Assembly (NCBI GenBank): GCA_903902345.1 | Contig: CAIUUR010000499.1 | Span: 1 to 56,433 of the forward strand | Direction: 5' to 3' | Origin: an uncultured Geobacteraceae bacterium | GTDB taxonomy: Bacteria > Desulfobacterota > Desulfuromonadia > Geobacterales > CAIOGM01 | DNA length: 56,433 nucleotides | In this document: in pieces, positions 7,529 to 24,105 of the stretch | Layout of the letters: every line of letters begins with the position of its first letter | Position numbering within the stretch: the stretch's first letter is position 1 | Translations under genes and position numbers: made by a program | The notes under the pieces: model-generated | The model's database searches: none | Seen by the model: only the letters and a program-made list of their open reading frames with translations | What the model was told of the DNA's origin: nothing

Positions 7529-7558
7529 TTGACAGGACACATTCAAATAATGTAAATA
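7529..7558 (+). promoter_or_regulatory. Candidate sigma70-type promoter for the 17-gene lipid operon
   Basis: TTGACA (7529-7534), 17-nt spacer, GTAAAT/TAAATA, in an AT-rich stretch about 40 nt upstream of the first gene (7596). Motif match only. Confidence 0.3.
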
Positions 7559-7595
7559 ATTTGTTTCGTTTACGGTTTTTTCGGAACAGACGACC

Positions 7596-8450
7596 ATGGA
7601 AAACGCGCTGACTATCGATGTGGAAGAGTGGTACCATCTTTGCGGTCCGGGGCCACTGCCGGAACCGGAGGGGCGAGAGCGTCGGGTTGTGAAAAATACC
7701 ACGGCGATCCTGGACCTTCTTCAGGAATTCGGCATCAAGGCGACCTTTTTCATCCTGGGGAGCGTTGCGGAGATGGAGCCCGCCCTGGCGCCGCTCATTG
7801 CCGGGGGGGGGCATGAGATCGCTTCCCACGGATGGAGTCACCGACTGGTGACGACTCTTACTCCGGCAGAGTTTCGTGGGGAACTGCGGCGTACCGGAGA
7901 GCTCCTGGAGCGGCAGTGCGGCCGGCGCCCCGTGGGATTTCGCGCCCCCCAGTGGTCGCTGGGGAGTTCGACCCCCTGGGCCTACGAGATCCTGCAGGAA
8001 GAGGGGTACCGGTATGACTCCAGCCTCAATCCGCTTCCCTTTGTGGGAGACCGGCGGGGGCCCCGGATTCCCCACAGGATCGCCGGAGCGTTGCTGGAAT
8101 TTCCACCCCTGGTCACCCCCTTTCCCGGCATGAACCTCCCCACGGGAGGTGGGTGGGGATTTCGGTTCTTCCCCCGCTCCTTCGCCATGGGGAGTACCCG
8201 GACGCTGAACGACCAAGGCTACCCGGCACTCCTTTATCTTCACCCCCGGGAGATGGATCCCGACGGTCCTCGGGTGAAGCTCTCCCCACTTCGGGAGTTC
8301 GTGGTCTACGGACCCCGTCGTTCTGCGGCTGAGGTGCTGAGGCCGATACTGTCTCGCTATCGTTTTACAACTCTGGAGCGTCTGGCTGACCTGTGGGATA
8401 CTGCGTTATCATCCCGGCATACAATGCCGCCTCAACCCTCCCCGCCGTAG
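7596..8450 (+). CDS. Polysaccharide deacetylase (NodB homology; resembles the DUF3473/PEP-CTERM-locus subtype)
   Basis: MENALTIDVEEWYHL..., ATFFILGSVAEMEP...GGHEIASHGWSH (NodB metal and catalytic motifs). Confidence 0.8.
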   Translation: MENALTIDVEEWYHLCGPGPLPEPEGRERRVVKNTTAILDLLQEFGIKATFFILGSVAEMEPALAPLIAGGGHEIASHGWSHRLVTTLTPAEFRGELRRTGELLERQCGRRPVGFRAPQWSLGSSTPWAYEILQEEGYRYDSSLNPLPFVGDRRGPRIPHRIAGALLEFPPLVTPFPGMNLPTGGGWGFRFFPRSFAMGSTRTLNDQGYPALLYLHPREMDPDGPRVKLSPLREFVVYGPRRSAAEVLRPILSRYRFTTLERLADLWDTALSSRHTMPPQPSPP

Positions 8451-9055
8451 CGGTGGAGGTGCTCACCTGCGGGGCGCCGCTCCTGGTGGTGGATGACGGC
8501 TCCAGCGACGGCACAGCCCGTTCGGTGGAGGGACTCCCGTTGAATCTGATTCGCCACGACCGGAATCGGGGGAAGGGGGCCGCACTGAGGAGCGGTTTTG
8601 ACTGGATGTTCCTGCATGGGTTCACCGGCGCCGTTACCCTGGACGCCGACGGCCAGCATGATCCGTCGGCCATCCAGCTCCTGCTGGCGGCCGCCCGACA
8701 GGACGACCTGGACATCCTTATCGCCTCCCGCGCGGTTCAGTTCCACCAGATGGGGGGATTGCGGAGCTGGTGGAACCGCTTCGGCGTATGGTGCATGAAG
8801 AAAAAAACCGGGTTCGATATCACCGACAGCCAGTCGGGGTTTCGCTACTACTCGGCGCGGCTCCTCCGTTCTCTGGAGATGGATGCCGTCGGGTATCACC
8901 TGGAGATGGAAATACTCATGAAAGCCTGGCGTGGTGGTTTTCGTATCGCCTCCCTCCCCGTGGCGGCCCGGGTGGCTGACGGCAGGGGGACCAGTCATTT
9001 CCGGCCGGTGCGGGACACCTGGAACATCTGCATGACCTTTCTTAGGTATTATTGA
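8393..9055 (+). CDS. Family 2 glycosyltransferase (DPM1/ApeJ-like)
   Basis: GTG start. CVIIPAYNAASTL, VVDDGSSDGT, RNRGKGAALRSGF, LDADGQHDP. The GT-A fold begins at residue 4, so the 58-nt overlap with the upstream gene appears real. Confidence 0.85.
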   Translation: MGYCVIIPAYNAASTLPAVAVEVLTCGAPLLVVDDGSSDGTARSVEGLPLNLIRHDRNRGKGAALRSGFDWMFLHGFTGAVTLDADGQHDPSAIQLLLAAARQDDLDILIASRAVQFHQMGGLRSWWNRFGVWCMKKKTGFDITDSQSGFRYYSARLLRSLEMDAVGYHLEMEILMKAWRGGFRIASLPVAARVADGRGTSHFRPVRDTWNICMTFLRYY

Positions 9056-9069
9056 GAGTGTGACCCCCT

Positions 9070-10431
9070 ATGCTGCAAAGCCTGAAAAACTATTCCACCG
9101 AAAAAATCGTTTCCCTCCTCCTCTCCCTGGGAGCTTCCTGCTCCAACGAGAACCTGGCCAGGATGACCCATCTCATGGAGCTGATCCCCCGGAAGGAGTC
9201 GTACAAGGAAAAGATCCGGTGGATCCGGCGGCTCATCCTGGAAAATCACCCCGCCATGGAGTTCCCCCGGCGAATTCTTCGGGATGTGCATCCCAACCAA
9301 CGGGAAAAATGGATTACCAACCTGACGGTGAACCACCTCCTTTCGGGGACCAACAAGCGAAAAGCCTGGCAGGATAAGGAGGGGTACTATCCCCCTTCCA
9401 CCGTGGTCATCAGCCTGACCATGAAGTGCAACCTTTCCTGCTACGGCTGCTATGCCGGCGACTACGAGAAGGAGCTGGAGCTGACCAACGACGAGGTGGA
9501 TTCCGTCCTCACTCAGATGAAAGAGATGGGGGTCTACTTTGCGGTTATCTCCGGTGGCGAACCGTTCTTCAAGAAGGATCTCTTCGATATTTTCCGGAAG
9601 CACTCGGACATGGCCTTTTTAGTCTTCACCCATGGCGGACTCATAAACGAGGGGGTTGTGGCCCAGCTCGTGGAGGTGGGAAACGTCATGCCCGCTTTTT
9701 CCCTGGAAGGGTACGAGGCCGAAACCGATGAGCGTCGCGGTGCGGGGCATTTCCAAAAGGTGATGCGGGCCATGGATCTTCTCCGGGGTGCGGGGCTCAC
9801 CTACTGCGGCTCCTTCACCCAGACCAGCCGGAACACAGGTGTCATCACCGACGGCCGGTATATGGACTTCCTCCTGGAGAAGGGGGTCTACGCCCTCTGG
9901 CTCTTTACCTACGTCCCCGTGGGGCGGGAGCCCGACCTGGAGTTGATGGCGACCCCGGAGCAGCGGGAGTTGCTTCGCTCCCGCATTGCCGAGTTCCGCG
10001 AAACCAAGCCGATGCTCTTCGTGGATTTCTGGAACGACGGCCCCATCATCGACGGCTGCATCGCCGGGGGGCGTAAATACTTCCATATCAATGCCAACGG
10101 TGACATCGAACCCTGCGTTTTCTGCCACATGGCGGTGGACAATATCCGTCGAAACTCCCTTAAGGAGGCGCTCCGCTCGCCACTGTTCACCAGAATTCGG
10201 GAAAAACAGGGAACGCATGAGAATCTCCTCCGTCCCTGCATGCTCCTGGACCATCCGGAAAACGGCAGGGAGTTTCTTGCCATGGAGGGGGTCTACCCCA
10301 CTCATGGTGGCGCCGATGCGATCTTCACGGAACTGGCGCCGCAGATGGACGAGTATGCCGCACGATATGGCGAAATCGCCGATAAGGTTTGGGAGGATGA
10401 ACTCTCACCCGGTCGCCCTCCCCGGCAATGA
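9070..10431 (+). CDS. Radical SAM protein with C-terminal Cys-rich SPASM/twitch-like extension
   Basis: CX3CX2C motif in SLTMKCNLSCYGCYAGDY, SAM-binding ISGGEPF, C-terminal DGCIAGGRKYFHINANGDIEPCVFCH...RPCML. Confidence 0.85.
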   Translation: MLQSLKNYSTEKIVSLLLSLGASCSNENLARMTHLMELIPRKESYKEKIRWIRRLILENHPAMEFPRRILRDVHPNQREKWITNLTVNHLLSGTNKRKAWQDKEGYYPPSTVVISLTMKCNLSCYGCYAGDYEKELELTNDEVDSVLTQMKEMGVYFAVISGGEPFFKKDLFDIFRKHSDMAFLVFTHGGLINEGVVAQLVEVGNVMPAFSLEGYEAETDERRGAGHFQKVMRAMDLLRGAGLTYCGSFTQTSRNTGVITDGRYMDFLLEKGVYALWLFTYVPVGREPDLELMATPEQRELLRSRIAEFRETKPMLFVDFWNDGPIIDGCIAGGRKYFHINANGDIEPCVFCHMAVDNIRRNSLKEALRSPLFTRIREKQGTHENLLRPCMLLDHPENGREFLAMEGVYPTHGGADAIFTELAPQMDEYAARYGEIADKVWEDELSPGRPPRQ

Positions 10432-11303
10432 CCCTCTACAGCGGACTGAGTCTGTTCATCATTAATCTTTTCACCCGCTTGGTACCGCGTCGGCTCTTCC
10501 CCCTCTTCGCCGCAGCCACGGGGTGGCTGGTCTATCTCTTCGTCCCCCTGCAGCGGCGCGGGATGCGGGAGAACCTTCGGACCGTGACCGGGCGAAGGTC
10601 GGTGGAACTGCTGGTTCTCAGCGCCTTTTACAAATATTCCCGGAACTGGGCCGACGTCATGCTGATGATCCGGTTGCGGGGGAACGAGCTCTTTGGTCTC
10701 ATGGGAAATCGTTCCAGCAGCCGTCCCCTGGATGACGCACTGGCCGCCGGGACCGGGGCCATCCTGGTCTCTCCCCATCTGGGGAACTGGGAACTGGGGG
10801 GGCTGGGGCTGGCGGAGATGGGCTACGTGCAGAACATCATGACCTTTCGGGAGCCCGATGAAAAGGTCAACGATCTGCGGGAAAAGTTTCGGTCGGAGCG
10901 GGGAATCGGCATCATTTACGTGGACCGCAACGACACCTCCCCCCTGGCGATCATCCAGGCGGTGAATGCCCTGAGGAGAAACGAGATCGTGGTTCTCCTG
11001 GGGGAGCGGGACGGTTCGTCGCACACCATGCGGCTGGAATTTTTCGGGCGCCCCACGGAGATCCCGGTGGGGGCCGCCTACCTGGCTCTGGCCAGCGGCG
11101 CGCCGGTGATACCGGTTTTCGTCCCGTTGGAGGGGGACCGGTATGCCACCTACATGGAGGAGCCGATCTATTTCCGGGGCAAACAGGGCGATCACGCCGC
11201 AGCCATCCGGAAGGGGACGGAGCAGCTGCTTCGGGTCTTCGAACGGTATATCCGGCGCTACCCGGATCAGTGGTACAATTTTTTTTCCTACTGGCGAAAC
11301 TAA
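10428..11303 (+). CDS. LpxL/HtrB-family (lysophospholipid/lipid A-type) acyltransferase
   Basis: N-terminal membrane anchor, then SPHLGNWELGG (H-x4-E/D acyltransferase motif) and LLGERDGS. ATGA overlap with the upstream gene. Confidence 0.8.
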   Translation: MTLYSGLSLFIINLFTRLVPRRLFPLFAAATGWLVYLFVPLQRRGMRENLRTVTGRRSVELLVLSAFYKYSRNWADVMLMIRLRGNELFGLMGNRSSSRPLDDALAAGTGAILVSPHLGNWELGGLGLAEMGYVQNIMTFREPDEKVNDLREKFRSERGIGIIYVDRNDTSPLAIIQAVNALRRNEIVVLLGERDGSSHTMRLEFFGRPTEIPVGAAYLALASGAPVIPVFVPLEGDRYATYMEEPIYFRGKQGDHAAAIRKGTEQLLRVFERYIRRYPDQWYNFFSYWRN

Positions 11304-11324
11304 TCCATATAAAGAGGTACTCCC

Positions 11325-11582
11325 ATGTCAGAATCATTGATAGAACCGGTCAAACAGCTCATCATCGACGCTCTCCGCATCGAGGGGATGACCACGGCGG
11401 ATATCGACTCCGACGCTCCCCTCTTTGGGGAGGGGCTGGGGCTCGACTCCATCGACGCCCTGCAGCTGGTGGTGGCCATGGAGAAGGAGTACGGGGTGGT
11501 GGTTCCCGACGCAGCCACGGGGACAACGGTCTTCCAGTCTGTCCGGAGCATGGCGGCGCATATCGCGGAACATCGTAAATGA
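11325..11582 (+). CDS. Acyl carrier protein
   Basis: 85 aa with LGLDSIDALQLVVAMEKEYG (phosphopantetheine Ser in DSI). Confidence 0.9.
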   Translation: MSESLIEPVKQLIIDALRIEGMTTADIDSDAPLFGEGLGLDSIDALQLVVAMEKEYGVVVPDAATGTTVFQSVRSMAAHIAEHRK

Positions 11583-12868
11583 AAATTCTTTTTGTCGTCC
11601 CTGGCTGGCCCAAGGGGCGGCTCTGGGGAGAACTCGGCTTCAAGTTTCCCTCCCTTTCTCTGGCGGCCCTGGCGGCGGTGACCCCCGACTCCTTCCAGGT
11701 CGAGCTCCGGGACGAAAACATCGAGAAGCTGGAGCTGGACGCAGCAGTCGACCTGGTGGCCATCACCGCCATGACCCCCCAGGCGCCGAGGGCCTATGCC
11801 ATTGCCGACGCCTTCCGACGGCGGGGGATTCCGGTGGTCATGGGGGGCTTTCACGCCAGCGTTCTACCCCATGAGGCGCTGGAGCATGTGGATTCGGTGG
11901 TGGTGGGGGAGGGGGAGAGTGCCTGGCCCCTGCTCCTGAGCGACTTCCGACAGGGGAAGATGGCGCCGCTCTACCGGAGCGACAAGCCGGCGGCCATGGC
12001 CGACATCCCCCGGGCGGGACGGTCCCTCTTCGCGGGGAAGCGGTACCTCCTCACCAATACTCTCCAGACGACCCGCGGCTGCCCCTTTGAGTGTGAATTC
12101 TGCTCAGTGACCGCTTTTTACGGCAGGAAATACCGTACCCGGCCGGTGGCGGGTGTCCTGGCTGAACTGGAGGAGCTTCGCCGTAAGAACTCCTTTGCCT
12201 TCTTCGTGGATGACAATCTTGTGGCCAACCGCTCCTATGCCCTGGAGCTCTTCACCGGGATGAAGGGGATGGGATTCAAATGGCTTTCCCATGCCCCCAT
12301 CGATTTCGGCCGTGATCCGGAGCTCCTGCGGGCCGCCGGCGATTCCGGTTGCGTGGGGATGTTCGTCGGTTTCGAATCTCTGAATCAGGATACTCTGGCA
12401 GCCATGGGAAAGGTCACTAACCGGGCCACCTCCTACCTGAATGACGCCAAGGCGTTTCGTGACAACGGCATCGGTATCCTGGGCTCTTTCGTTCTCGGTT
12501 GCGATGGTGATACGCCGGATATTTTCCCGCAGATTCTCCGCTTTTGCGAGGAGGCGCGGCTGGAGTCGGCCATCTTCCCCATTCTGACCCCCTATCCGGG
12601 GACGGCGGTGAGACAGAGGTTGGAGGAAGAGGGGCGGATCATTTCCAACGCCTGGGAGGATTACGACATGGGGCATGTCAACTTCCTTCCCAGGGGAATG
12701 AGTGTTGCAGAGCTGCAGGACGGGCATGACTGGCTCAACCGCTCTTTTTACTCACTTGGCTCCATGTACCGCAGGCTCTTCAAGGCTCACCGGTCGGTGC
12801 AGGTTTTCGGTCCCATGAACTTCGGCTTCCGGAGCGCCATCCGGCGTTGTGCCAAGGTTTCCGTATGA
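11579..12868 (+). CDS. B12-binding-domain radical SAM protein (class B-like), paralog of 22160-23521
   Basis: N-terminal Rossmann/cobalamin-type domain (VAITAMTPQAPRAYAIADAFRRRGIPVVMGGFHAS...VVVGEGE), then TTRGCPFECEFCSV. ATGA overlap with the ACP gene. Confidence 0.85.
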   Translation: MKILFVVPGWPKGRLWGELGFKFPSLSLAALAAVTPDSFQVELRDENIEKLELDAAVDLVAITAMTPQAPRAYAIADAFRRRGIPVVMGGFHASVLPHEALEHVDSVVVGEGESAWPLLLSDFRQGKMAPLYRSDKPAAMADIPRAGRSLFAGKRYLLTNTLQTTRGCPFECEFCSVTAFYGRKYRTRPVAGVLAELEELRRKNSFAFFVDDNLVANRSYALELFTGMKGMGFKWLSHAPIDFGRDPELLRAAGDSGCVGMFVGFESLNQDTLAAMGKVTNRATSYLNDAKAFRDNGIGILGSFVLGCDGDTPDIFPQILRFCEEARLESAIFPILTPYPGTAVRQRLEEEGRIISNAWEDYDMGHVNFLPRGMSVAELQDGHDWLNRSFYSLGSMYRRLFKAHRSVQVFGPMNFGFRSAIRRCAKVSV

Positions 12869-13710
12869 ACTGCTATATGTTTCCCGGCCAGCCTCTTTCC
12901 CGTTCCCGGGGGATCCCCCAGGACCATGATGGGGAACAGATTGCGGAACTCTGCCGGCGCCATGCCCTGTTCGATCCGGAGAGCTGGGAGTGGCTGACGC
13001 CGGATGGTACGGACAATGTGGCCCTGCAGCTACATGGGGTGGCCATGAGTCTGCATGGGGCGCGCACCCTGAAAAAGGGGGGAGTAACGCCGGGAATCGT
13101 CGCCGAGCATAGTATGGGAATCTACCCGGCAGCGGCCCTTTGTGGCTCCCTGGCGGAAGAGTCTGTTCTGGAGATCACCAGCAGGGGGGGGCGGGCCATG
13201 GCTGCCATGGGGAGTTCCCGGCACTACTCCCTGGGATGTGTGGTGGGTCTGACGGTGGAGCCGGTTACCGCGCTTGCGGAAAACCATGGGGTCTATCTGG
13301 CCAATGTCAACACCGACCGTCACTTTCTCCTCGCCGGTGAGCTGGACCCCATGAACGGCGCCATGGCGGAGGCCCTCGCCGTTGGCGCCTTCTCCGCCAA
13401 CTCTTTTTCCTGCGACGCCCCGCTCCACACTCCCCTCATGGGAGAGCTGGAGGGGGAGTTGAGGGCGATTTTCTCCGACTACCGCTACCGCGATCCCCAG
13501 GTGCCGCTCATGAACCATGTGGACCAGTGCTGTCTTTGCGGCAGTGACCTGGCCGACTTCATGTACCGGGAACTTCTCCTCCCCGTGCAGTGGGAGCGCA
13601 CCTACCGGGCGCTCCGGAGTGCGGGAGTCGATCATTTTTTCGAAGTGGGGCAGGGGGATTCACTGAAAAAATACAACCGCTGGCTTGAGAGCCGGTGGGA
13701 AGGAAGCTGA
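12865..13710 (+). CDS. FabD-like (malonyl-CoA:ACP) acyltransferase
   Basis: MNCYMFPGQPLS (FabD-type N-terminus), nucleophile elbow EHSMGIY. ATG at 12865 chosen over the TTG at 12847 because it makes an ATGA overlap with the upstream stop. Confidence 0.8.
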   Translation: MNCYMFPGQPLSRSRGIPQDHDGEQIAELCRRHALFDPESWEWLTPDGTDNVALQLHGVAMSLHGARTLKKGGVTPGIVAEHSMGIYPAAALCGSLAEESVLEITSRGGRAMAAMGSSRHYSLGCVVGLTVEPVTALAENHGVYLANVNTDRHFLLAGELDPMNGAMAEALAVGAFSANSFSCDAPLHTPLMGELEGELRAIFSDYRYRDPQVPLMNHVDQCCLCGSDLADFMYRELLLPVQWERTYRALRSAGVDHFFEVGQGDSLKKYNRWLESRWEGS

Positions 13711-13713
13711 TTC

Positions 13714-14136
13714 ATGATCTGGCATGAGACCCCACTTACGGTGCGTTTTAACGAAGTGGACGCCTATCAGGTGGCCTGGCACGGGCACTTTGTCGCCTGG
13801 ATGGAGGTGGGGCGCAATGACCTGGCGGGCCGATTCGACCTCAATGCCCAGCAGATCCGCACCGCCGGCTACCGGGCGCCGGTGGTGAATCTGGAACTCT
13901 CCTACAAGCGGCCGGCCCGGTTCAACGAGGAGCTGAGTGTCGGGACGGTTGCCCGCCGCACGGAGATCGCTACCCTTGAGTTTCTCACCCGGATCACCGG
14001 CGCCGACGGCGCCGTTATCGCTACCGGCAGGACCGTTCATGTCCTCACCGACGATGGGGGGACCCTCCTCTACCGGCTTCCACCCCTCATCGCCGGGCGT
14101 CTGGAGCGGATGTTTACTCATCTGGAGGGAGCGTGA
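13714..14136 (+). CDS. Hotdog-fold acyl-CoA/ACP thioesterase (4HBT/YbgC-like)
   Basis: TVRFNEVDAYQVAWHGHFVAWMEVGRND matches the 4HBT signature. 140 aa. Confidence 0.8.
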   Translation: MIWHETPLTVRFNEVDAYQVAWHGHFVAWMEVGRNDLAGRFDLNAQQIRTAGYRAPVVNLELSYKRPARFNEELSVGTVARRTEIATLEFLTRITGADGAVIATGRTVHVLTDDGGTLLYRLPPLIAGRLERMFTHLEGA

Positions 14137-16278: not shown

Positions 16279-16382
16279 TCCTGCAAAAACAGATTGTTTC
16301 CGGATGTCGTAACAGGTAAGATAGCACTAACTGTTTTATGCTTGTTTTGACCGGATCTGTAGACAATTTTTAGGTGCGCCTC

Positions 16383-18630: not shown

Positions 18631-19004
18631 TCGATCCTGCCCAACGTCTTCCCCATCGTAATCCGTTCCTCTTTCTTGACCGTGTCACCACCCTGGAGCC
18701 GGGCGTCCGTGGTGAGGCCATCGCTCTGGTGTCTCACCTTCCCGGCGCCTCCCCGCTGCTTCTTGTGGAGGCCATGGCTCAGCTTGCAGGAGTGGTGGCC
18801 ATTGAGCAGGAGGGGGAGATCGGTTCCCTGGCAGCCATCGACCGGGCGGAATTTCTTGCACCGGTGTCGCCAGGGGATTGCCTGTTTATCTCCATGCGGA
18901 TAATCAAGAGGTTCGGCCGTCTCATTCTCTGCCAGGGCGAGATTACCTCTGCAGGGGAAACGGTGGCCACGGCCACTCTGACTCTGGGGGTGGGCGCCCC
19001 GTGA
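18627..19004 (+). CDS. FabZ/FabA-like 3-hydroxyacyl-ACP dehydratase (hotdog)
   Basis: GTG at 18627 (GTGA overlap) gives VIDPAQRLPHRNPFLFLDRV..., which is the FabZ HR(Y/N)PFLLVDRV motif. The ORF-track start at 18426 lies inside the upstream gene. Confidence 0.8.
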   Translation: MIDPAQRLPHRNPFLFLDRVTTLEPGVRGEAIALVSHLPGASPLLLVEAMAQLAGVVAIEQEGEIGSLAAIDRAEFLAPVSPGDCLFISMRIIKRFGRLILCQGEITSAGETVATATLTLGVGAP

Positions 19005-19648
19005 ACCGACATACGGTTTTCTCCGTGCCTCCGTGCCTCCGTGGTTTAACTGTCGTTCTCCTGTTTCTCTGTATGGTTTCCGTCGCAACAACCGCCGTTG
19101 CTGAACCGCTTACCCCCTTGGAGGGGCTGGAACTCCTCCGCCGGGGCTTTGCGGGGATGACCGACTTTACCGCGGAGATAACCCAGGAGAAACAGCTTTC
19201 GATCATGAAAAAGAAGCTGACCTCCACCGGCCGAGTCCGGTTTCGGCGTCCCGGAACCTTTTTCATGGAGATCTTTTCCCCCTATCCCAGCCGTCTCCTC
19301 CTGGAGAACAGCGATCTGACGATCTTCTATCCGGCCGCGAAAAACAGACAAAAAATTCCGCTTCCCGCCGAAGAGGGGCTTGGGCAATGGTTCGCCTACC
19401 TGGACAACCCCATTACCACCCTTCCCGAGGGGTTGCAACTGCAGGCCGAACGCCACGGGGAAAACTGCACACTCAGGATTTTACCCCAGGGAAAGCAGGG
19501 AATACGGGAGTTGACCCTCCTCTTCCTGGATGACGGACGGATCAAAAAGCTTGTCATTCAGGAGCAGAACGGGGACCGCAACAGCATCACCTTCCGGAAC
19601 ATGAAGAAAAACGTGGGGCTCACGGAGAAGGAGTTCCGCCTGGAATGA
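19001..19648 (+). CDS. LolA-like outer-membrane lipoprotein carrier protein
   Basis: GTG at 19001 (GTGA overlap). Signal peptide LTVVLLFLCMVSVATTAVA, then the LolA pattern FTAEITQEKQLSIMKKKLTSTGRVRFRRPGTFFMEI. Confidence 0.75.
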   Translation: MNRHTVFSVPPCLRGLTVVLLFLCMVSVATTAVAEPLTPLEGLELLRRGFAGMTDFTAEITQEKQLSIMKKKLTSTGRVRFRRPGTFFMEIFSPYPSRLLLENSDLTIFYPAAKNRQKIPLPAEEGLGQWFAYLDNPITTLPEGLQLQAERHGENCTLRILPQGKQGIRELTLLFLDDGRIKKLVIQEQNGDRNSITFRNMKKNVGLTEKEFRLE

Positions 19649-22170
19649 AGCATCGTCTACTTGCCTGCCTCAATGCTGCCATCATCGCCCACCTTACCTG
19701 GATCTGGCGGGTATCCGTCCGCTCACCCCGGCAGTTCCTCCTGGGGACACTCCTGCTTCTGGTCCCGGCTCTCTGGGGGGTGACGACCACCCGTTTCGAG
19801 TTCGATATCTTCCGGCTCTTCCCCGCGGAAAAAGGGGCGCTTCGGCTCTTCCTTGACTCCCTGGAGTGGACAGGGAGCGGTCAGGAAGCGTTCTTTGTTC
19901 TGGAAGGGGAGAAGGAGAAGCTGATCCCGGCGGCTGCGGAATTCGCCGGCAAACTCTCTGCTCTCAAGGTGGACGGAAGCCCGGCTTTCAAGAAGGTGAT
20001 CTGGCGGACGATGGATCCGGCTGAGGCTCAACCCTTTGCCGCCTTCATCGGCTATGCCGCCACCCGCCCTGAACTTTTCCTCACTCCACCCGACCTGGCG
20101 GAACTGAAAGCACGGCTCACCCCCCGGGGGATGGACGGTGCGCTTCGGCGCGCCACTACCGAGTTGGCAGGGGAGGGGGGGATGGTCTCCCGGGATCTCA
20201 TTGTCGCCGATCCCCTGGGAATTCGGGAGATGATTCTCCCCCGCCTCCGACAGGGAAGCCGGACCCTGGATCTGGACAGCTCCTCTCCCTATTTTCTTTC
20301 CCGGGACGGCCGGGTCCTGGTCATCATCGCACAGCCGGCCAGGCCGGTGCAGGAGATGGCCTTTGCCCGGAAGCTGGTGGCCGGAATTAATGGTGCTCGT
20401 GCCGGCGCCACGGTGCATATCTCCTGCGCCGGCGCCCATCTGAGCGCGGTCATTGATGAGTCGAGCATGAAGGGGAATATCGTCTCCTGCATCGTCTCCT
20501 CCCTGATCGTGGTTCTGGGGATCTTCTATTTCACCTACCGACGGCTCCTCCCCACGCTCCTCATTCCGGTGATCATCTCCTGCGGCGTCTTCCTCGCGCT
20601 GGGGACGGCCGGGCTCTTTCTCCCCTCCATTCATATCATCTCCTTTGCCTTCACCGCCCTCATCATTGGTCTCGGCACCGACTACTCCATCCATATCTAC
20701 GACCGGTTTTATGGGGAGCGGGCTGCGGGGGTCGATCCGGTGGAGGCGCTCCGGTTGGCCATCGTTGACACCGGTTACGGGGTCTTCACTGCAGCCTTCA
20801 CCACCGCCGTGCCGTTTTTGGCACTCACCATCTCCGACGTCCGGGCTCTCTTCGAGCTGGGGCTACTCGTGGGACTGGGGGTGCTTTTCTCGCTCTATGC
20901 CACCTATTTCTTTTTGCCGCCACTCCTCCTCTTCATGGAGAGGCGTTTTCCGTTCTCCCTCTACCATCCTCTCCCCACCTTCGGCTTGGGTGGACTCTGG
21001 GACCGTTGTCTTCGGTCCCGGCGGTGGATCGCGGTGGTCACCACCCTGCTGATCGTGGTTTTTCTGGCGGCGGCAACCAGGATCGGATTCGAGGGGGATC
21101 TGAAAAAGCTCCAGCCCCGGCAGTCGGAGGCGATGCTGACCCAGGAAAAGATCGAACAGCACCTGAACTTGAGCCCCAAGTCGCTGATGGTGGCGGTGGA
21201 GGGAACCGATCTCAACGAGGTCATGAGCAAGGGGGCCAAGGTAGATACCCTGGCGGAACGGTACCGGCGGGAGGGGGAGCTTGTCGCCTACTCTTCCCTG
21301 GGGCAGATTCTCAATGGACCCCAGCGGCAGCGGGAGATGACGATCCAGCTGGCGACGACCCTGGGAGGAAGCGATCTGTCAGGGAAACTTCGCACCGTCC
21401 TGGAGCGGAGCGGGTTCGATCCTGCCCCCTTTGCACCGGCGTTGGTCGGGGTCGCAGCACTGGCCGAACCCCGAACCGGCGGGGCGGAAGAGGCGGTGAG
21501 GATGCTCTCCGCCTCGCCGCTGAAGGGGATAGTGGAGCGGCATCTGGTCAAGCATGATGGTGTCTGGCGGCTCCTCAGCCATCTTTCCTACCGGGGGAAG
21601 GAGTTTCATCGGGAGCGGTTCCTTGAGGAGTTGGCGATACAGGTTCCCGGCGCGAGGGTAACAGGGATAGACCTGGTGGGTGAGCAGCTCTCCGCGTCGG
21701 TGCGGCGGAGTTTCGGCTGGAGCTTTCTCCTGGGGGGAATCCTCGTGCTCTTCCTCCTGATGTCCCATTTTGATACGCGTGCCGGGATCTATGCCTCGCT
21801 CTTTCCGGTACTTGCCGGAGGTATTGCCATGCTGGGGCTCATGGTTCTCACCGGGATGAAAATTAATTTCATGAATTCCATGGTGGTTGTCACCATCCTG
21901 GGGATGGGGAGCGATTACGGGCTCCATATCTTCCACCGGGCCGGAATCGTCGGACCGAAACAGCGGGATCAGTTTATCCAGGCGGGGCGGGCGGTGTTCC
22001 TTTCGGCTCTTACCACGGTTGCCGGGTTTGGCTCCCTGGCCTTCACCGATTACGGCGCCATGTCTTCCATCGGTTGGGCCACCAACTACGGCGTTATTGC
22101 CACAGTCATTTTTTCCCTGGTCTCCCTGCCGGCGCTCCTGGCGTTTCGTGGTCACTCTCATGGTAACTGA
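19645..22170 (+). CDS. MMPL/RND-superfamily exporter (two 6-TM bundles with large periplasmic loops)
   Basis: 841 aa with two hydrophobic blocks (about aa 280-430 and 690-830), each preceded by a soluble domain. GLGTDYSIH and GMGSDYGLH repeat motifs. ATGA overlap with the LolA-like gene. Confidence 0.85.
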   Translation: MKHRLLACLNAAIIAHLTWIWRVSVRSPRQFLLGTLLLLVPALWGVTTTRFEFDIFRLFPAEKGALRLFLDSLEWTGSGQEAFFVLEGEKEKLIPAAAEFAGKLSALKVDGSPAFKKVIWRTMDPAEAQPFAAFIGYAATRPELFLTPPDLAELKARLTPRGMDGALRRATTELAGEGGMVSRDLIVADPLGIREMILPRLRQGSRTLDLDSSSPYFLSRDGRVLVIIAQPARPVQEMAFARKLVAGINGARAGATVHISCAGAHLSAVIDESSMKGNIVSCIVSSLIVVLGIFYFTYRRLLPTLLIPVIISCGVFLALGTAGLFLPSIHIISFAFTALIIGLGTDYSIHIYDRFYGERAAGVDPVEALRLAIVDTGYGVFTAAFTTAVPFLALTISDVRALFELGLLVGLGVLFSLYATYFFLPPLLLFMERRFPFSLYHPLPTFGLGGLWDRCLRSRRWIAVVTTLLIVVFLAAATRIGFEGDLKKLQPRQSEAMLTQEKIEQHLNLSPKSLMVAVEGTDLNEVMSKGAKVDTLAERYRREGELVAYSSLGQILNGPQRQREMTIQLATTLGGSDLSGKLRTVLERSGFDPAPFAPALVGVAALAEPRTGGAEEAVRMLSASPLKGIVERHLVKHDGVWRLLSHLSYRGKEFHRERFLEELAIQVPGARVTGIDLVGEQLSASVRRSFGWSFLLGGILVLFLLMSHFDTRAGIYASLFPVLAGGIAMLGLMVLTGMKINFMNSMVVVTILGMGSDYGLHIFHRAGIVGPKQRDQFIQAGRAVFLSALTTVAGFGSLAFTDYGAMSSIGWATNYGVIATVIFSLVSLPALLAFRGHSHGN

Positions 22171-23521
22171 TATTCCCCCTCCCTCCGGCACACTCCGGCC
22201 CCGTCTCCTGCTTGTCTACCCGGCGACAGTCAAGCTGGGTTGGGTGAGACGGTTCCAACTCCCCTCCCTGTCGCTTCAGCAGGTGGCTGCTGTCGTTCCG
22301 GCTTCCTGGGAGGTGACCCTGGTGGACGAGGTGCATGAAGATATTCCCTGGGACCGATCGTACGATCTGGTGGGAATCACCGCCATGTCCCATCAAGCGA
22401 CCCGGGCCTACGAGATTGCCGACCGGTTTCGGGCCTGGGGGATTCCGGTGGTTATGGGGGGGATTCACCCCTCGGTCCTTCCGGAGGAGGCGTTGACCCA
22501 TGCCGATTCGGTTGTCGTCGGTGAGGCGGAGCCGGTTATGGAGCGGCTGTTGAACGATTGCCGGGGCGGACAGCTGCAACCGATCTACCGCTCTTCACCC
22601 CCCAGTGACGATCTGCTCACCGTCCCCTGGCCCCGGCGGGAACTCCTGGCCGGGAAACGGTATCTTACCACCCAGACGATTCAGGCCAGCCGCGGCTGTC
22701 CCTACGACTGCCCCTTCTGCACGGTTACCCCCTACTTCGGCCGAAGTTTCCGCTACCGGGACCCGGATGACATTCTGGCGGAGCTCCGTTCCTTCAGTGG
22801 TCGGCTCACGATCTTTCTGGACGACAACATTTTGGGGGACCCGGAGCGGGCTCGCCCGATTCTCAAGGGGATGGTGGGAATGGGACTCAAATGGGGGGGG
22901 CAGGCCAACCTCCGTTTTGCCGAAGATCCTGAACTGGTCCGGTTGGTGGCCGCTTCGGGGTGCATCGGGATTTTCGTGGGGATTGAGACCGCAACCGGTT
23001 CCTATGCCAACCTCCCCAAGAACAGTGGCGGCTCTTCTCCCGCACAGCTGATCCGGCGGGTACGGGACGCGGGAATCGTCCTGGAGGCGTCCCTCATCTT
23101 CGGTTTTGACGATCACGACGAGAGCATCTTTGATCGGACACTTCGTTTTCTGGATGAATGTTCTCCCGGTGTCGCCACCTTCAACGTCCTCACTCCCTAT
23201 CCCGGAACGGCGCTCTTCACGCAGTTTCAGGAGGAGGGGCGGATACTGCACCAGGATTGGAGCCGGTACGATCACTCCCAGGTGGTCTTCCAGCCCAAGC
23301 TCATGACCCCGGACCGTCTCCATCGGGGGTGGCTGGAGGTCCGCCGGGAGGTGTACCGCTGGCCGGCCATCTTTTCTCGCGTACTTTCCTCTCCCAGGGG
23401 GCGGTTCACTACACTGGCTTATAATCTGCTGCGCCGTGGGGGAAATCTCTCTGCTGCCGACCTGGCCATCCTGGCGGCTCATGACCTGTCCGGGACCGGT
23501 TCAGGAGGGAGTTCTTCGTGA
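22160..23521 (+). CDS. B12-binding-domain radical SAM protein, paralog of 11579-12868
   Basis: ATG at 22160 (MVTDIPPPSG...). VGITAMSHQATRAYEIADRFRAWGIPVVMGGIHPS...VVVGEAE and ASRGCPYDCPFCTV. The ORF-track start at 21887 lies inside the MMPL gene. Confidence 0.85.
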   Translation: MVTDIPPPSGTLRPRLLLVYPATVKLGWVRRFQLPSLSLQQVAAVVPASWEVTLVDEVHEDIPWDRSYDLVGITAMSHQATRAYEIADRFRAWGIPVVMGGIHPSVLPEEALTHADSVVVGEAEPVMERLLNDCRGGQLQPIYRSSPPSDDLLTVPWPRRELLAGKRYLTTQTIQASRGCPYDCPFCTVTPYFGRSFRYRDPDDILAELRSFSGRLTIFLDDNILGDPERARPILKGMVGMGLKWGGQANLRFAEDPELVRLVAASGCIGIFVGIETATGSYANLPKNSGGSSPAQLIRRVRDAGIVLEASLIFGFDDHDESIFDRTLRFLDECSPGVATFNVLTPYPGTALFTQFQEEGRILHQDWSRYDHSQVVFQPKLMTPDRLHRGWLEVRREVYRWPAIFSRVLSSPRGRFTTLAYNLLRRGGNLSAADLAILAAHDLSGTGSGGSSS

Positions 23522-24105
23522 TCACTATTCTCAACTTTTCACAGCGGGCGGAGGGGATCAACGACAGGATTTGCGCGGAATTGCTGGCAGGATTTACCGC
23601 ACGGGGAATTCATCCCCGCTACATCAAGGCTCGCGACCTGACGATCGGCTTTTGCAACAACTGCCGAAGCTGTATGCAGGCGGCCGGAGACGAGTTGGGA
23701 GAGTGCCATCTGCCGGACGATATGAAGGGACTCCTGGAGAGTATATTGAAATCCCGTTGCCTCATTGTCTCGGCTCCCATCAACTGTTACGATCTCCCGG
23801 CGCTGCTTCGGGTGATTCTGGAGCGAATGAGCGTCTTCTGCCACTGGCCCGACGACAACTACTCCCCTGCCGTACGGAAAATGCCCAATGAGATCAAGGG
23901 GGTTTTGATTACTACCAGCGCCCTCCCCGGAATCATGGTCCCCCTTCTAACCCGGGCGAGAAAGAGTTTCAGGCTCTTTGCCCGCCCCCTAAGAGTCACG
24001 AAGATCGACTATTATCATCTGGGGTTCAAGGGACGAAAGGCAGACATGATCTATGCGGAGAATGATCGCCGCATCGTTGGAAAGATCATTGCCTCACTTG
24101 CATGA
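23518..24105 (+). CDS. Flavodoxin-fold / NAD(P)H-dependent FMN reductase-like (iron-sulfur flavoprotein-like) protein
   Basis: 195 aa. MITILNFSQRAEG...CNNCRSCMQ...LIVSAPINCYDLPALLRVILERM resembles the flavodoxin-like fold family. GTGA overlap with the preceding radical SAM gene. Last gene of the operon. Confidence 0.55.
   Translation: MITILNFSQRAEGINDRICAELLAGFTARGIHPRYIKARDLTIGFCNNCRSCMQAAGDELGECHLPDDMKGLLESILKSRCLIVSAPINCYDLPALLRVILERMSVFCHWPDDNYSPAVRKMPNEIKGVLITTSALPGIMVPLLTRARKSFRLFARPLRVTKIDYYHLGFKGRKADMIYAENDRRIVGKIIASLA

Follow-up and report, generated by a model that had tools for sequence, protein, structure and literature searches.

What is made by a tightly packed run of seventeen genes on a contig from an uncultured Geobacteraceae bacterium, and does it belong with the aryl polyene (APE) clusters that it recalls? 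The window that we analysed is a stretch of 56,433 nt (contig CAIUUR010000499.1), and an earlier note on it had described a single translationally coupled lipid cluster with an APE signature and additional radical SAM enzymes. Our answer, given with slightly better than even confidence, is that the locus would be a specialised-lipid cluster in which a 'ladderane-type' FASII/radical SAM cassette is joined to an attachment and export system resembling that of APE lipids.

The locus is a genuine conserved operon-like gene cluster found among Geobacter relatives. All 17 open reading frames (g1-g17, Table 1) lie on the plus strand between 7596 and 24105 without internal stops, and the near absence of spacing described earlier was reproduced in every overlap: 4 nt at 10428, 11579, 12865, 14133, 18627, 19001, 19645 and 23518, 11 nt at 17584 and 22160, and 58 nt at 8393. 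The sole sizeable gap separates the ketoreductase (KR) and ketosynthase (KS) genes, g10 and g11. It measures 104 nt (16279-16382), as had been claimed, if g11 starts at ATG 16383, and 95 nt (16279-16373) if it starts at GTG 16374; the ATG is the likelier start because an AGGTG Shine-Dalgarno sequence lies 6 nt 5' of it. Upstream, the expected terminator is a hairpin (dG -33.9 kcal/mol; z -9.7 vs shuffles) that closes the preceding unit and sets the 5' boundary of the cluster. The next ORFs downstream, 24136-24594 and 24982-25575, are both on the minus strand and hence convergent to it, again as noted before, while intrinsic terminators within the cluster showed no excess (16 found, 20.8 expected). 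The start of the cluster, previously placed at 7529, has to be moved: g1 has its first start codon at 7596, and 7529 falls in the promoter-like motif P1. Ahead of the cluster, where a promoter-like stretch had been proposed, this motif is conserved: TTGAC[AT]-N15-17-TGTAnn occurs in the 250 nt before g1 in 33 of 52 related loci, compared with 14 of 2000 random windows. P1 was not called by a strict sigma-70 scan.

Table 1. Features of the locus and its surroundings, in window coordinates.
Feature	Coordinates	Strand	Assignment	Basis or detail
Hairpin	7370..7410	+	Intrinsic terminator	18-bp stem GCCGCACCC..GGGTGCGGC, lengthened by A/T runs, then TTTTCTT
P1	7529..7556	+	Promoter-like motif	TTGACA-N16-TGTAAA, conserved upstream of g1
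g1	7596..8450	+	NodB/CE4 deacetylase with DUF3473	Pfam Polysacc_deac_1 + DUF3473
g2	8393..9055	+	GT2 lipid-phosphate sugar transferase	Counterpart of ApeJ N-terminal half
g3	9070..10431	+	Radical SAM with SPASM/twitch-like C-terminal domain	Pfam Radical_SAM + SPASM
g4	10428..11303	+	LPLAT/LpxL-family acyltransferase	Pfam Lip_A_acyltrans; counterpart of ApeJ C-terminal half
g5	11325..11582	+	ApeE-type acyl carrier protein (ACP)	NF006617, 75.1 bits, over cut-off 70
g6	11579..12868	+	B12-binding radical SAM with DUF4070	Pfam; CxxxCxxC conserved
g7	12865..13710	+	FabD/MdcH-like acyltransferase	Pfam Acyl_transf_1
g8	13714..14136	+	Hotdog thioesterase, ApeK-like	Pfam 4HBT_2; 31% identity to ApeK, E 1e-16
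g9	14133..15521	+	B12-binding radical SAM, TIGR04072 (rSAM_ladder_B12)	384.5 bits vs cut-off 360
g10	15538..16278	+	FabG-type ketoreductase	Pfam adh_short_C2; 36% identity to ApeQ
P2	16294..16322	+	Promoter-like element	TTGTTT-N17-TAAGAT, in KR-KS gap
g11	16383..17594 (alternative GTG start 16374)	+	Active ketosynthase (predicted)	Cys164/His297/His334
g12	17584..18630	+	Non-canonical KS, chain-length-factor-like partner	N-terminal KS domain only
g13	18627..19004	+	Short FabZ-like dehydratase (DH)	Pfam FabA; NCBIfam FabZ 68.7 bits, under cut-off
g14	19001..19648	+	LolA-like protein	Pfam LolA; weak ApeL match, E 0.005
g15	19645..22170	+	MMPL/HAE3-type RND transporter	Pfam MMPL; 21% identity to ApeM, E 4e-8
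g16	22160..23521	+	B12-binding radical SAM with DUF4070, g6 paralogue	Pfam
g17	23518..24105	+	FMN_red-family protein, accessory, CX2CX2CX10C	Pfam FMN_red, 31.2 bits
PagL-like gene	24982..25575	-	Outer-membrane beta-barrel, probable associated gene	Pfam PagL
Fifth B12-binding radical SAM gene	35159..36577	-	Possible displaced member	Pfam

Pfam and NCBIfam profiles run on the 17 proteins reproduced every domain that had been claimed (NodB, GT2, radical SAM with SPASM, Lip_A_acyltrans, ACP, three B12-binding plus Radical_SAM proteins, Acyl_transf_1, 4HBT, FabG, KS, an N-terminal-only KS, FabZ-like, LolA, MMPL and FMN_red). As APE reference we used apeA-R of E. coli CFT073 and Xenorhabdus doucetiae, with BLASTP against the E. 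coli CFT073 Ape proteins, and the resemblance is real in sequence for five proteins (g2, g4, g5, g8 and g11). E. coli ApeJ is a single fusion protein, whereas its GT2 and acyltransferase halves are two genes in the locus. Over its entire length g2 aligns with ApeJ residues 8-231 (31% identity, E 1e-21), and PpgS is the best NCBIfam match of both proteins (for g2, 82 bits vs 28.8 bits for ArnC); the PDB matches of g2 are DPMS and ArnC. The best match shared with ApeJ, together with these solved relatives, points to the chemistry required for the sugar-1-phosphate-glycerol link that the structure of the APE lipid (APEL) carries (bioRxiv 10.1101/2020.12.19.423268). Similarly, g4 aligns with ApeJ residues 363-550 (E 4e-12), its HX4E motif SPHLGNWE standing opposite ASHLGDVE; its nearest NCBIfam model is a PIM acyltransferase, and BLASTP gave no match to ApeD. 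The LpxL-type acyltransferase proposed earlier is thus a Lip_A_acyltrans family member, but its counterpart is the C-terminal half of ApeJ and not ApeD. The ACP g5 is 46% identical to ApeE, has an A. baumannii APE ACP (9ls6) as its best PDB match and keeps Ser42 in 65 of 65 orthologues.

Also shared with APE clusters are the ApeK-like thioesterase, the FabG-type KR, a LolA-family protein with an MMPL transporter, and the absence of an enoyl reductase. The transporter g15 matched the HAE3 and HpnN-like NCBIfam models, both under their cut-offs. By eye, an N-terminal hydrophobic stretch in the g14 translation resembles a signal peptide.

Beyond this, the locus departs from the APE pattern. The claim of an APE gene order fails, since the E. 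coli order ends in TE-LolA-MMPL-DUF3261-KS-DH-KR-KS, and so does that of an APE-like KS partner and dehydratase: g12 has no detectable kinship to ApeC (hhalign probability 0.2), and g13 gave no BLASTP match to ApeI or ApeP. Judged by its matches, the KS g11 is nearer to FabF (E 1e-81) than to the solved APE ketosynthases (1e-47 to 6e-42); its 40% identity to ApeO extends over 259 aa, in the C-terminal half. The earlier observation that no adenylating/aryl-loading enzyme, methyltransferase or halogenase is present holds in both the domain and the BLASTP comparison. The locus lacks ApeH (aryl-loading), the ApeB methyltransferase, ApeD, ApeG (COG4648) and ApeN (DUF3261), with BLASTP finding no counterpart of ApeD, ApeG, ApeH or ApeN, and it has one KS and one ACP only. 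What it has beyond APE clusters is four radical SAM enzymes, the FabD-like acyltransferase g7 (MdcH 116 bits, FabD 83 bits, both under cut-offs), the NodB deacetylase g1 and the FMN_red protein. For g1 the nearest NCBIfam model is the XrtA-system polysaccharide deacetylase (209.9 bits, under the cut-off of 276), and its PDB matches are generic CE4 deacetylases.

The core of the locus recalls a different family. In gene content, we compared the locus with the 'ladderane-type' clusters kuste3335-3352 of Kuenenia stuttgartiensis and their counterpart in Desulfotalea psychrophila (SAM-radical genes DP1853 and DP1855), as described in Rattray 2009 and Javidpour 2016. Common to all are a dedicated ACP, FabG, FabZ, a FabF with a non-canonical FabF, at least two SAM-radical enzymes with a TIGR04072 member among them, and genes for a glycosyltransferase and a polysaccharide-deacetylase-like protein. 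Absent from the locus are the phytoene-desaturase-like gene, SAM-dependent methylases, phenylacetyl-CoA ligase and VacJ-like protein of those clusters; additional to them are the LolA/MMPL export pair, the ApeJ-half acyltransferase, the thioesterase, the FabD-like acyltransferase and the SPASM-type radical SAM enzyme. The tie to the anammox ladderane proposals drawn in the earlier note is borne out by g9, which passes the trusted cut-off of its curated NCBIfam family. At the level of sequence, then, the locus is a mosaic of APE-like attachment and carrier parts and a 'ladderane-type' FASII-radical SAM core.

This core includes a KS pair. The residues Cys164/His297/His334 of g11 are kept in 43 of 43 orthologues, while g12 has Phe163 at the place of the catalytic Cys (Phe163 in 39 of 42 orthologues) and lacks the His-His pair; the same Cys-to-Phe substitution is listed for the non-canonical FabF NP_951518 of G. 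sulfurreducens (Rattray 2009, PMC2649909). A KS with a translationally coupled dead partner, beside a FabZ-like DH, an ACP and a B12-radical SAM enzyme, is also found in anammox 'Cluster I' (kuste3603-3608: amxACP, amxFabZ, amxFabF2, amxFabFmut, PDH and B12-radical SAM), whose KS/CLF-like heterodimer amxFabF2/amxFabFmut has been shown to decarboxylate malonyl-ACP (bioRxiv 10.64898/2026.05.19.726425). However, g11 matches amxFabF2 with E 2e-70 and g12 matches amxFabFmut with 4e-14, no better than they match ordinary FabF (1e-81 for g11, 2e-24 for g12), the ACP is APE-type and not amxACP-like, and PDH is absent.

The radical SAM enzymes fall into two kinds. In g3 the CxxxCxxC motif occupies positions 120/124/127, the C-terminal Cys are only four (330, 349, 352 and 390), and the solved structures closest to it are those of SkfB and BlsE. 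The cobalamin-binding g6 and g16 share 44% identity. In g9, R68 stands opposite R69 of TsrM, and the place of TsrM Glu273 is taken by Ile; its family is broad (1212 50%-identity clusters at E<=1e-30). The Cys of the g17 motif are at 46, 49, 52 and 63.

The synteny comparison that had been suggested showed the cluster to be conserved in most of 73 Geobacteraceae-type loci, cultured species among them. Complete g1-g8 is found in 52 of 56 informative loci, adjacent g10-g13 in 41 of 51, and LolA together with MMPL in 26 of 36; the core cassette is also found in Syntrophobacterales and Thermodesulfobacteriota. Orthologous clusters with near-identical gene order and 45-89% protein identity, as far as each contig reaches (L072 stops just past g9), are present in Geotalea toluenoxydans, Geotalea sp. 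SG265, Geobacter sp. AOG1, Geobacter argillaceus, Oryzomonas japonica, Pelotalea chapellei and Trichlorobacter thiogenes. P1 precedes g1 in five of the six of these with enough upstream sequence, L077 being the exception. The novelty implied earlier was overstated: similar FASII and SAM-radical clusters were already reported from Geobacter spp., Pelobacter carbinolicus and D. psychrophila (Rattray et al. 2009, PMC2649909), so that the locus belongs to an already known orphan family, and at NCBI the orthologues of g9 already bear the name 'lipid biosynthesis B12-binding/radical SAM protein'. The 'ladderane-type' clusters of non-anammox hosts are orphan, as is the locus.

As in the earlier note, this gene set is best explained by a glycolipid that is targeted to the outer membrane and has its chain modified by radical chemistry, and the best reading would be an APEL-like sugar-phosphate lipid with a non-aryl chain tailored by the radical SAM enzymes. 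In this pathway, which we infer from homology, g7 would load malonyl onto g5, and g11 with g12 would prime and extend the chain after the model of KS/CLF systems and the anammox heterodimer, g10 and g13 processing each unit. Since no enoyl reductase is encoded in the cluster, an unsaturated or polyenic chain is probable if no housekeeping FabI steps in. The cobalamin-dependent g6, g9 and g16, and perhaps 35159-36577, may functionalise unactivated chain carbons, most likely by C-methylation and alternatively by C-C bond formation or rearrangement, with g17 as candidate reductant. Between a polyene and a saturated chain, and between methylation and cyclisation, the sequence does not decide. On the head-group side, g2 would attach a HexNAc to a lipid phosphate, this sugar being a possible substrate for N-deacetylation by g1; the target of g3, with its one predicted auxiliary cluster, may be either sugar or chain. 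As proposed for the fused ApeJ in aryl polyene lipids, g4 would move the ACP-bound chain to the sugar-lipid, with g8 helping in release or editing. The pump g15 and the putative periplasmic carrier g14 would then bring the lipid to the outer membrane, where a conserved PagL-like barrel may receive or trim it.

Would the same genes instead remodel lipid A? On that account g4 adds a special ACP-bound chain as a secondary acyl, g2 and g1, in the roles of ArnC and ArnD, make an undecaprenyl-phosphate amino sugar with which lipid A is decorated, and a primary chain is cleaved off by the PagL-like neighbour. The Pfam family of g4, the weak ArnC match of g2, the NodB family that g1 shares with ArnD and the conserved PagL-family neighbour all fit, and, at a time when the APEL structure was not yet available, lipid A had been weighed as a possible anchor for APE (Johnston et al. 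2021, PMC8253772). We nevertheless consider it unlikely, given that g4 aligns with the ApeJ half and is best matched by a sugar acyltransferase and not LpxL, that g2 scores far higher with PpgS, and that the cluster encodes no ArnT-like transferase. Moreover, lipid A is exported by MsbA/Lpt, which would make a dedicated LolA/MMPL pair needless. It is also improbable that the radical SAM enzymes put mid-chain methyl branches or other changes into ordinary membrane acyl chains, the FAS-like genes only supplying a dedicated pool and no special glycolipid being made. The breadth of the g9 family is consistent with such bulk tailoring, as are the ten of 51 informative loci in which g1-g9 lack neighbouring g10-g15, and in two Acidobacteriota loci (L073 and L079; Thermoanaerobaculia and Holophagales) g6 and g9 (54-66% identity) occur without KS, ACP or other FAS genes nearby, so that these enzymes may act on ordinary lipids. 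This would leave unexplained the conserved co-location of split ApeJ, deacetylase, LolA and MMPL in Geobacteraceae, and the dedicated ApeE-type ACP, thioesterase and KS/CLF-like pair.

A true ladderane pathway, leading to concatenated cyclobutane lipids, is very unlikely: the TIGR04072 family of g9 is named for the proposed ladderane radical SAM enzymes, and the FabF pair, ACP, FabZ and FabG recall anammox clusters, yet ladderanes are reported from anammox Planctomycetota only, the locus lacks the anammox phytoene-desaturase-like gene and SAM methyltransferases, and the tie between any such genes and ladderanes is itself unproven. D. psychrophila, which has the most syntenic non-anammox cluster, makes no ladderanes (Rattray 2009, PMC2649909). 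Finally, the locus might comprise two adjoining transcription units with separate products, g1-g10 (head group, ACP, radical SAM) and g11-g17 (KS, DH, export). The single coupled unit of the earlier note is not obviously indivisible: g1-g9 are separable as described above, g17 is confined to few loci, and P2, an element conserved within the clade, lies in the KR-KS gap, where TTGnnn-N17-TAnnAT was seen by eye in about 8 of 13 aligned related gaps of 83-195 nt (e.g. L002, L006, L007, L010 and L014). We still think separate products distinctly unlikely, because g1-g10 have ACP, acyltransferase and thioesterase without a condensing enzyme and g11-g17 have condensing enzymes without an ACP, because the KR and KS genes share 6-13 nt in 27 other loci, and because their adjacency recurs in distant Syntrophobacterales (L080).

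Around the cluster, two genes have counterparts that adjoin it in other genomes. PagL-like orthologues (57-71%) lie convergent and directly 3' of the MMPL gene in five loci (L012, L017, L033, L040 and L050), with partial matches (68-75%) at the contig ends of L035 and L065. Orthologues of 35159-36577 (71-75%) come next after the PagL-like gene where the cluster ends in L012, L017 and L050, while about 9.6 kb of other genes separate the two in the window. Within the cluster, g16 is mobile in position between genomes: it is at the 3' end only in the window and in its closest relative, L002 (g9 82% identical), whereas 20 other loci have the orthologue on the plus strand at a place upstream of g9; in the four of them viewed gene by gene, it sits between g6 and g7. 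The accessory gene g17 is lineage-specific, being found in only two related loci, there inside the cluster, and at the 3' end only in the window among the loci compared.

The cluster consists of 17 consecutive plus-strand ORFs (g1 to g17, numbered 5' to 3'; 7596-24105) without internal stops, and Pfam together with NCBIfam reproduced every gene assignment that an earlier note had made from the sequence alone (see the table). Only two of the 17 proteins pass a curated NCBIfam cut-off. The first, g9, matches TIGR04072 ('rSAM_ladder_B12, lipid biosynthesis B12-binding/radical SAM protein') at 384.5 bits against a cut-off of 360, in a full-length alignment (2-447 / 1-440); the second, the carrier protein g5, matches NF006617 at 75.1 bits (cut-off 70), and its Ser42 is kept in 65/65 orthologues. 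The last gene product, g17, carries a CX2CX2CX10C motif which, we assume, recalls iron-sulfur flavoproteins.

Genes of the cluster and two genes downstream of it, with family assignments
Gene	Coordinates	Strand	Assignment
g1		+	NodB/CE4 + DUF3473
g2		+	GT2
g3		+	radical SAM + SPASM
g4		+	Lip_A_acyltrans
g5		+	ACP
g6		+	B12-binding + radical SAM + DUF4070
g7		+	FabD/MdcH-like acyltransferase
g8		+	4HBT thioesterase
g9		+	B12-binding + radical SAM
g10		+	FabG
g11		+	full ketosynthase (KS)
g12	17584-18630	+	KS N-terminal domain only
g13		+	short FabZ-like
g14		+	LolA
g15		+	MMPL/HAE3 RND
g16		+	g6 paralogue, 44% identity
g17		+	FMN_red
PagL-like gene	24982-25575	-	PagL-family (lipid A 3-O-deacylase-like) outer-membrane barrel (Pfam PagL)
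Fifth B12-radical SAM gene	35159-36577	-	B12-binding radical SAM, outside the 17-gene cluster

All four radical SAM enzymes of the cluster contain the CxxxCxxC motif. In g6, g9 and g16 an N-terminal B12-binding domain (PF02310) precedes the CxxxCxxC core (PF04055), which is the class B architecture, and the three motif cysteines are all kept in 63-64, 79 and 22 orthologues, respectively. The closest solved structures to g9 are TsrM (8e-35), AprD4 (9e-26) and 9ccb (1e-16), and the class B enzymes have no characterised close relative. The B12 domain of g9 aligns with that of TsrM, and R68 of g9, invariant in the family, lies opposite TsrM Arg69, which presumably sits beneath the corrin. TsrM Glu273, which we take to be a ligand of the Fe-S cluster, is replaced by Ile in the g9 alignment; on this ground g9 was rejected as a TsrM-like non-radical methylase, and canonical radical chemistry would therefore be expected of it. 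g6 and g16 fall into the DUF4070 group, with HpnJ, BchE and ApyD as the nearest NCBIfam families, all far below their cut-offs. For g3, the nearest solved relatives are SkfB and the sugar decarboxylase BlsE, and its C-terminal part has only four cysteines, sufficient for one auxiliary cluster. C-methylation is the commonest activity of the cobalamin-dependent radical SAM class, and by analogy it would be our first guess for the reaction of the class B enzymes.

The ketosynthase g11 and its partner g12 form an unequal pair. Cys164, His297 and His334 of g11 are kept in 43/43 orthologues, while g12 has Phe163 in place of the catalytic Cys of g11 (Phe in 39 of 42 orthologues) and lacks the C-terminal His-His region. 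An active KS gene is thus overlapped, by 11 nt, by the gene of an inactive KS-like partner, a coupling of the ketosynthase/chain length factor (KS/CLF) type. Phe163 of g12 is followed, at residue 164, by a Cys found in 42/42 orthologues, so that the inactive partner retains a cysteine shifted by one position from the canonical site. As matches of g11, FabF structures (1e-81) and anammox amxFabF2 (2e-70) outscore the solved aryl polyene (APE) ketosynthases (1e-47 to 6e-42; 7f28_B 1.5e-47, 6qsp_A 1.9e-44). By BLASTP, g11, the one active KS of the cluster, is 40% identical over 259 aa to ApeO of Escherichia coli and 28% identical to ApeR. An ApeC-type CLF was ruled out as an identity for g12, which gave no BLASTP match to ApeC, and hhalign of the g12 family profile returned a probability of 0.2 (E 0.32). 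The FabF pair of anammox 'Cluster I' (kuste3603-3608 of Kuenenia stuttgartiensis) assembles into a heterodimer of the KS/CLF kind with malonyl-ACP decarboxylating activity (bioRxiv 10.64898/2026.05.19.726425), and by analogy this pair is the best functional model for g11/g12.

We compared the 17 proteins by BLASTP with ApeA-R, encoded by the ape cluster of E. coli CFT073 (locus L081, 33728-48749, minus strand). Residues 8-231 of ApeJ, a fused glycosyl/acyltransferase, are matched end to end by g2 (31% identity, E 1e-21), and residues 363-550 by g4 (E 4e-12), the HX4E motif SPHLGNWE of g4 falling on ASHLGDVE of ApeJ; these alignments argue that g2 and g4 are the two halves of ApeJ. As an ApeD or LpxL orthologue, g4 was rejected: it aligns with the C-terminal half of ApeJ, it has no match to ApeD, and its best NCBIfam family is PIM acyltransferase. 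PIM acyltransferase acylates a sugar hydroxyl. The best NCBIfam family of both ApeJ (52.5 bits) and g2 (82 bits), each below the cut-off, is PpgS, polyprenyl-phospho-GalNAc synthase, and among solved structures g2 is related to DPMS and ArnC; PpgS, DPMS and ArnC all put sugar on lipid phosphate. In the aryl polyene lipid (APEL) of Xenorhabdus the polyene is esterified to the sugar of a glycerol-phosphate-GalNAc backbone, and ApeJ was proposed as the enzyme that adds GalNAc and also acylates it from ApeE (bioRxiv 10.1101/2020.12.19.423268).

Further likeness is found in g5, an ACP of the ApeE/ApeF type that is 46% identical to ApeE and has the Acinetobacter baumannii APE ACP 9ls6 as its best PDB match, although the window cluster has this one ACP and ape has two (ApeE/ApeF). 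g8 is 31% identical to ApeK; g10, at 36% identity to ApeQ, is of generic FabG type. As to the ape export set, g14 and g15 belong to the LolA and MMPL families but resemble ApeL (E 0.005) and ApeM (E 4e-8) only weakly. The dehydratase (DH) g13 has no BLASTP match to ApeI or ApeP, and BLASTP found no counterpart of ApeA, B, D, G (COG4648), H or N (DUF3261) among the 17 proteins. As to aryl starter activation, an AMP-binding domain is present in 0/17 proteins and ApeH is matched by none at E<=0.01. The gene order also differs from that of ape. Given these non-matches, the comparison argues that the locus is not an APE cluster, though it has the proteins for carrier, release and anchor attachment in common with one.

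g9 belongs to a large family: 2793 matches at E<=1e-20 were obtained among the 8000 candidates scored, 1212 50%-identity clusters reach E<=1e-30, and when one genome was scanned for each species, at least 581 genomes had a g9 relative. The best 80 of these loci (L001-L080) come almost all from Geobacteraceae/Desulfuromonadales; the closest g9 relatives among them belong to two MAGs (L001 and L002, 82% identity), and cultured carriers, at 61-68% identity, include Geotalea toluenoxydans, Geotalea sp. SG265, Geobacter sp. AOG1, G. argillaceus, Oryzomonas japonica, Pelotalea chapellei and Trichlorobacter thiogenes. Synteny, followed by tblastn of the 17 cluster proteins against the best 80 loci, is strong. 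All of g1-g8 are found in 52 of the 56 informative loci; g10-g13 stand side by side in 41/51 and are missing from the other 10, although these have 5.5 kb or more of sequence downstream; and LolA and MMPL are both found in 26/36. In 20 loci the orthologue of g16 precedes g9 on the plus strand (in L013, L028, L040 and L064 it comes directly after g6 or its ACP and before g7), and it takes the 3' end position in the window and L002 alone; g17 has counterparts in just two further loci, at differing sites within the cluster.

A reduced core is seen in the distant loci L075, L076, L078 and L080 (Thermodesulfobacteriota or Syntrophaceae/Syntrophobacterales MAGs), each as far as the contig reaches. 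The fullest, L080 (71-16589, Syntrophobacterales), encodes LPLAT, ACP, acyltransferase, thioesterase, the g9 orthologue, ketoreductase (KR), KS, a full-length second KS, DH, four B12-radical SAM enzymes and a small membrane protein, then ApbE, and has BcrAD/BadFG-type ATPase and HGD-D/DUF2229 activase-like genes ahead of its core; NodB, GT2, SPASM, LolA and MMPL are all absent from it. Two Acidobacteriota MAGs retain only the g6+g9 pair: L073 (8633-11422, Thermoanaerobaculia; 64-66% identity to the window) and L079 (5510-8188, Holophagales; 54-55%). In L073, where the neighbours were examined, these are a Ser/Thr kinase and unknown proteins, with no fatty acid synthesis (ACP/KS) genes near the pair. 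This suggests that g6+g9 of Acidobacteriota is a horizontally transferred, self-sufficient radical SAM pair. No anammox or Desulfotalea member occurs among the best 80 g9 loci or the 20 distant cluster representatives, the latter named as Deltaproteobacteria MAGs, Schekmanbacteria, Nitrospirota and Paenibacillus.

We are inclined, if only by a modest degree, to see in the locus a specialised outer-membrane glycolipid pathway that combines assembly, radical tailoring, split-ApeJ attachment and export. The chain would be built on the ApeE-type ACP g5 by the KS/dead-KS pair with KR and DH, a dedicated enoyl reductase being absent, and would be tailored by the cobalamin-dependent radical SAM enzymes. 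Homology suggests that g2 makes a lipid-phosphate-HexNAc, which g1 may deacetylate; g4 would move the g5-borne chain onto the sugar-phosphate lipid, and the MMPL and LolA-like proteins would serve export. Our proposal for the product is more tentative: possibly it represents an undescribed lipid class, an outer-membrane sugar-phosphate lipid with a non-aryl, probably polyunsaturated chain on which three to five cobalamin-dependent radical SAM enzymes would carry out C-methylation, cross-linking or rearrangement.

One rival is suggested by the name of the g9 family. FASII clusters with SAM-radical enzymes were described in Kuenenia by Rattray et al. 2009 (PMC2649909), whose Table 2 includes the G. 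sulfurreducens FabF paralogue NP_951518 with Phe163. The same substitution is found in g12; the window cluster has both the canonical plus non-canonical FabF pair (g11/g12) and the TIGR04072 B12-binding radical SAM enzyme (g9) of ladderane-type clusters. The Kuenenia cluster kuste3335-3352 has genes for a glycosyltransferase, for a protein resembling polysaccharide deacetylases, for ACPs, FabG and FabZ, for FabF paralogues, one of them non-canonical, and for a pair of SAM-radical enzymes that lie side by side (PMC4790861). Compared by published description, its phytoene-desaturase-like enzyme, two SAM methylases and phenylacetyl-CoA ligase are absent from the window cluster (PMC4790861), and amine-oxidase/phytoene-desaturase or methyltransferase domains, listed for kuste3335-3352 and kuste3603-3608, are present in 0/17 proteins. 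Ladderanes have been reported in the literature only from anammox bacteria, and Desulfotalea psychrophila makes none (Rattray et al. 2009, PMC2649909); metagenome surveys have recorded antiSMASH 'ladderane' clusters, expressed but without an assigned function, from Desulfobacterota and further phyla outside the anammox group. Papers of 2023 and 2026 call the ladderane pathway itself still unresolved, with no experiment tying such clusters to ladderanes (PMC10139942, PMC13459092, bioRxiv 10.64898/2026.05.19.726425). Weighing likeness against difference, we hold true ladderane synthesis to be extremely improbable here.

Three other readings deserve somewhat more credit. Lipid A remodelling would be in keeping with the family of g4 and the PagL-like gene nearby, and has against it the alignment of g4 with ApeJ; we think it unlikely. 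Tailoring of bulk fatty acids seems to us just as unlikely in a cluster that carries its own candidate attachment and export genes, but this reading gains from the g6+g9 pairs that stand alone and from the loci that lack a neighbouring KS module, the main facts that the glycolipid pathway explains poorly. That two unrelated units simply adjoin in this locus, a reading to which loci without the KS module also speak and which sits less well with the overlap of the KR and KS genes in 27 loci, has a slimmer chance again, though a better one than ladderane synthesis.

The orphan cluster family is already known, having been noticed in Geobacter in 2009, named in NCBI annotation and, by published accounts, flagged by antiSMASH as 'ladderane' outside the anammox bacteria; a literature search found no published work on the Geobacter locus, and only two incidental mentions of aryl polyenes together with Geobacter. 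New, at the level of sequence comparison, are the predicted split ApeJ (g2/g4), which links the attachment chemistry to the solved APEL structure, two conserved promoter-like elements, and the PagL-like gene and the fifth B12-radical SAM gene as recurrent neighbours. If the cluster does make an undescribed lipid class, g9 would become the first experimentally tractable TIGR04072 enzyme, as the cluster sits in culturable Geobacteraceae. This family has long been proposed for ladderane biosynthesis, its action there never having been shown, and none of the enzymes encoded in the proposed ladderane clusters has been linked to a product, one reason being that anammox bacteria lack a genetic system (PMC10139942). 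In most Geobacteraceae-type loci recovered, the TIGR04072 enzyme, its paralogues and the KS/dead-KS pair are embedded in a cluster with APEL-readable attachment chemistry. Since homology to the solved APEL structure makes this chemistry legible, mutant lipidomics in cultured Geobacter relatives could reveal TIGR04072 action on an acyl chain, and could also bring to light an uncharacterised outer-membrane component of Geobacter. The outer membrane of Geobacter is the surface for electron transfer to minerals and electrodes.

The gene junctions are as the earlier note had described: eight 4-nt ATGA/GTGA overlaps (10428, 11579, 12865, 14133, 18627, 19001, 19645 and 23518), two 11-nt overlaps (17584 and 22160) and one of 58 nt (8393). 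The remaining gaps measure 3, 14, 16 and 21 nt, apart from a larger one between g10 and g11, which is 95 nt if g11 starts at GTG 16374 and 104 nt if it starts at ATG 16383; the latter, the start chosen in that note, is likelier because AGGTG lies 6 nt upstream. A hairpin 5' of the cluster (7370-7410) folds with -33.9 kcal/mol (z = -9.7), terminator-like sites are not enriched within the cluster (16 found vs 20.8 expected), and the next ORFs downstream (24136-24594 and the PagL-like gene) are both on the minus strand. No Rfam match, whether to a cobalamin riboswitch or another known RNA element, was found at gathering thresholds anywhere in the window. G+C content is 0.53 (6001-8000) and 0.51 (24001-26000) at the cluster borders and 0.60-0.625 within.

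The cluster had been said to begin at 7529, where no gene starts; this is the position of a TTGACA hexamer, followed 16 nt on by TGTAAA. The corresponding motif, TTGAC[AT]-N15-17-TGTAnn (7529-7556), lies at most 250 nt upstream of g1 in 33/52 loci whose flanks have otherwise diverged, compared with 14/2000 random windows, which lends support to the promoter suggested in the earlier note. KR and KS genes overlap by 6-13 nt in 27 loci and are separated by 83-195 nt in the window's clade, and by eye about eight of 13 aligned KR-KS gaps hold a TTGnnn-N17-TAnnAT element (16294-16322 in the window). A strict sigma-70 scan called neither site, so that it is conservation alone that makes them promoter-like. 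Given these two elements, the cluster may in the window's lineage be transcribed from two promoters, and 'one translationally coupled 17-gene unit' was too strong a wording.

Two minus-strand genes recur beside the cluster. PagL-like orthologues (57-71% identity, more than the orthologues of DH and LolA show at these loci) lie convergently, directly after the MMPL gene, in L012, L017, L033, L040 and L050, and L035 and L065 have partial matches at contig ends. In L012, L017 and L050 the PagL-like gene is followed directly, at the end of the cluster, by an orthologue of the fifth B12-radical SAM gene (71-75%). In the window the two are ~9.6 kb apart, with plus-strand genes between them: a run of probable cell-surface genes (25990-35110) encoding, among others, SLH-domain/TPR, GNA1162-like/TPR/NosD-like, transglutaminase-like and 786-aa FGE-sulfatase-domain proteins. 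The 152-aa minus-strand ORF convergent on g17 (24136-24594) shows by eye a signal of the lipoprotein type (…LLSAC SS); neither Pfam nor NCBIfam gives a match to it, and the 80 related loci lack a counterpart. On the 5' side (1959-5324, plus strand), an NMT1/THI5-like periplasmic binding protein comes first, then a hybrid HAMP-PAS histidine kinase that carries a receiver domain; since the kinase has only weak, partial matches in related loci, it is probably not a dedicated regulator of the cluster. A 1170-aa SNF2-family helicase gene (36585-40097) lies directly upstream of the fifth radical SAM gene on the same, minus strand, and a Transposase_29 gene (54179-56395, plus strand; 738 aa) lies at the 3' end of the window.
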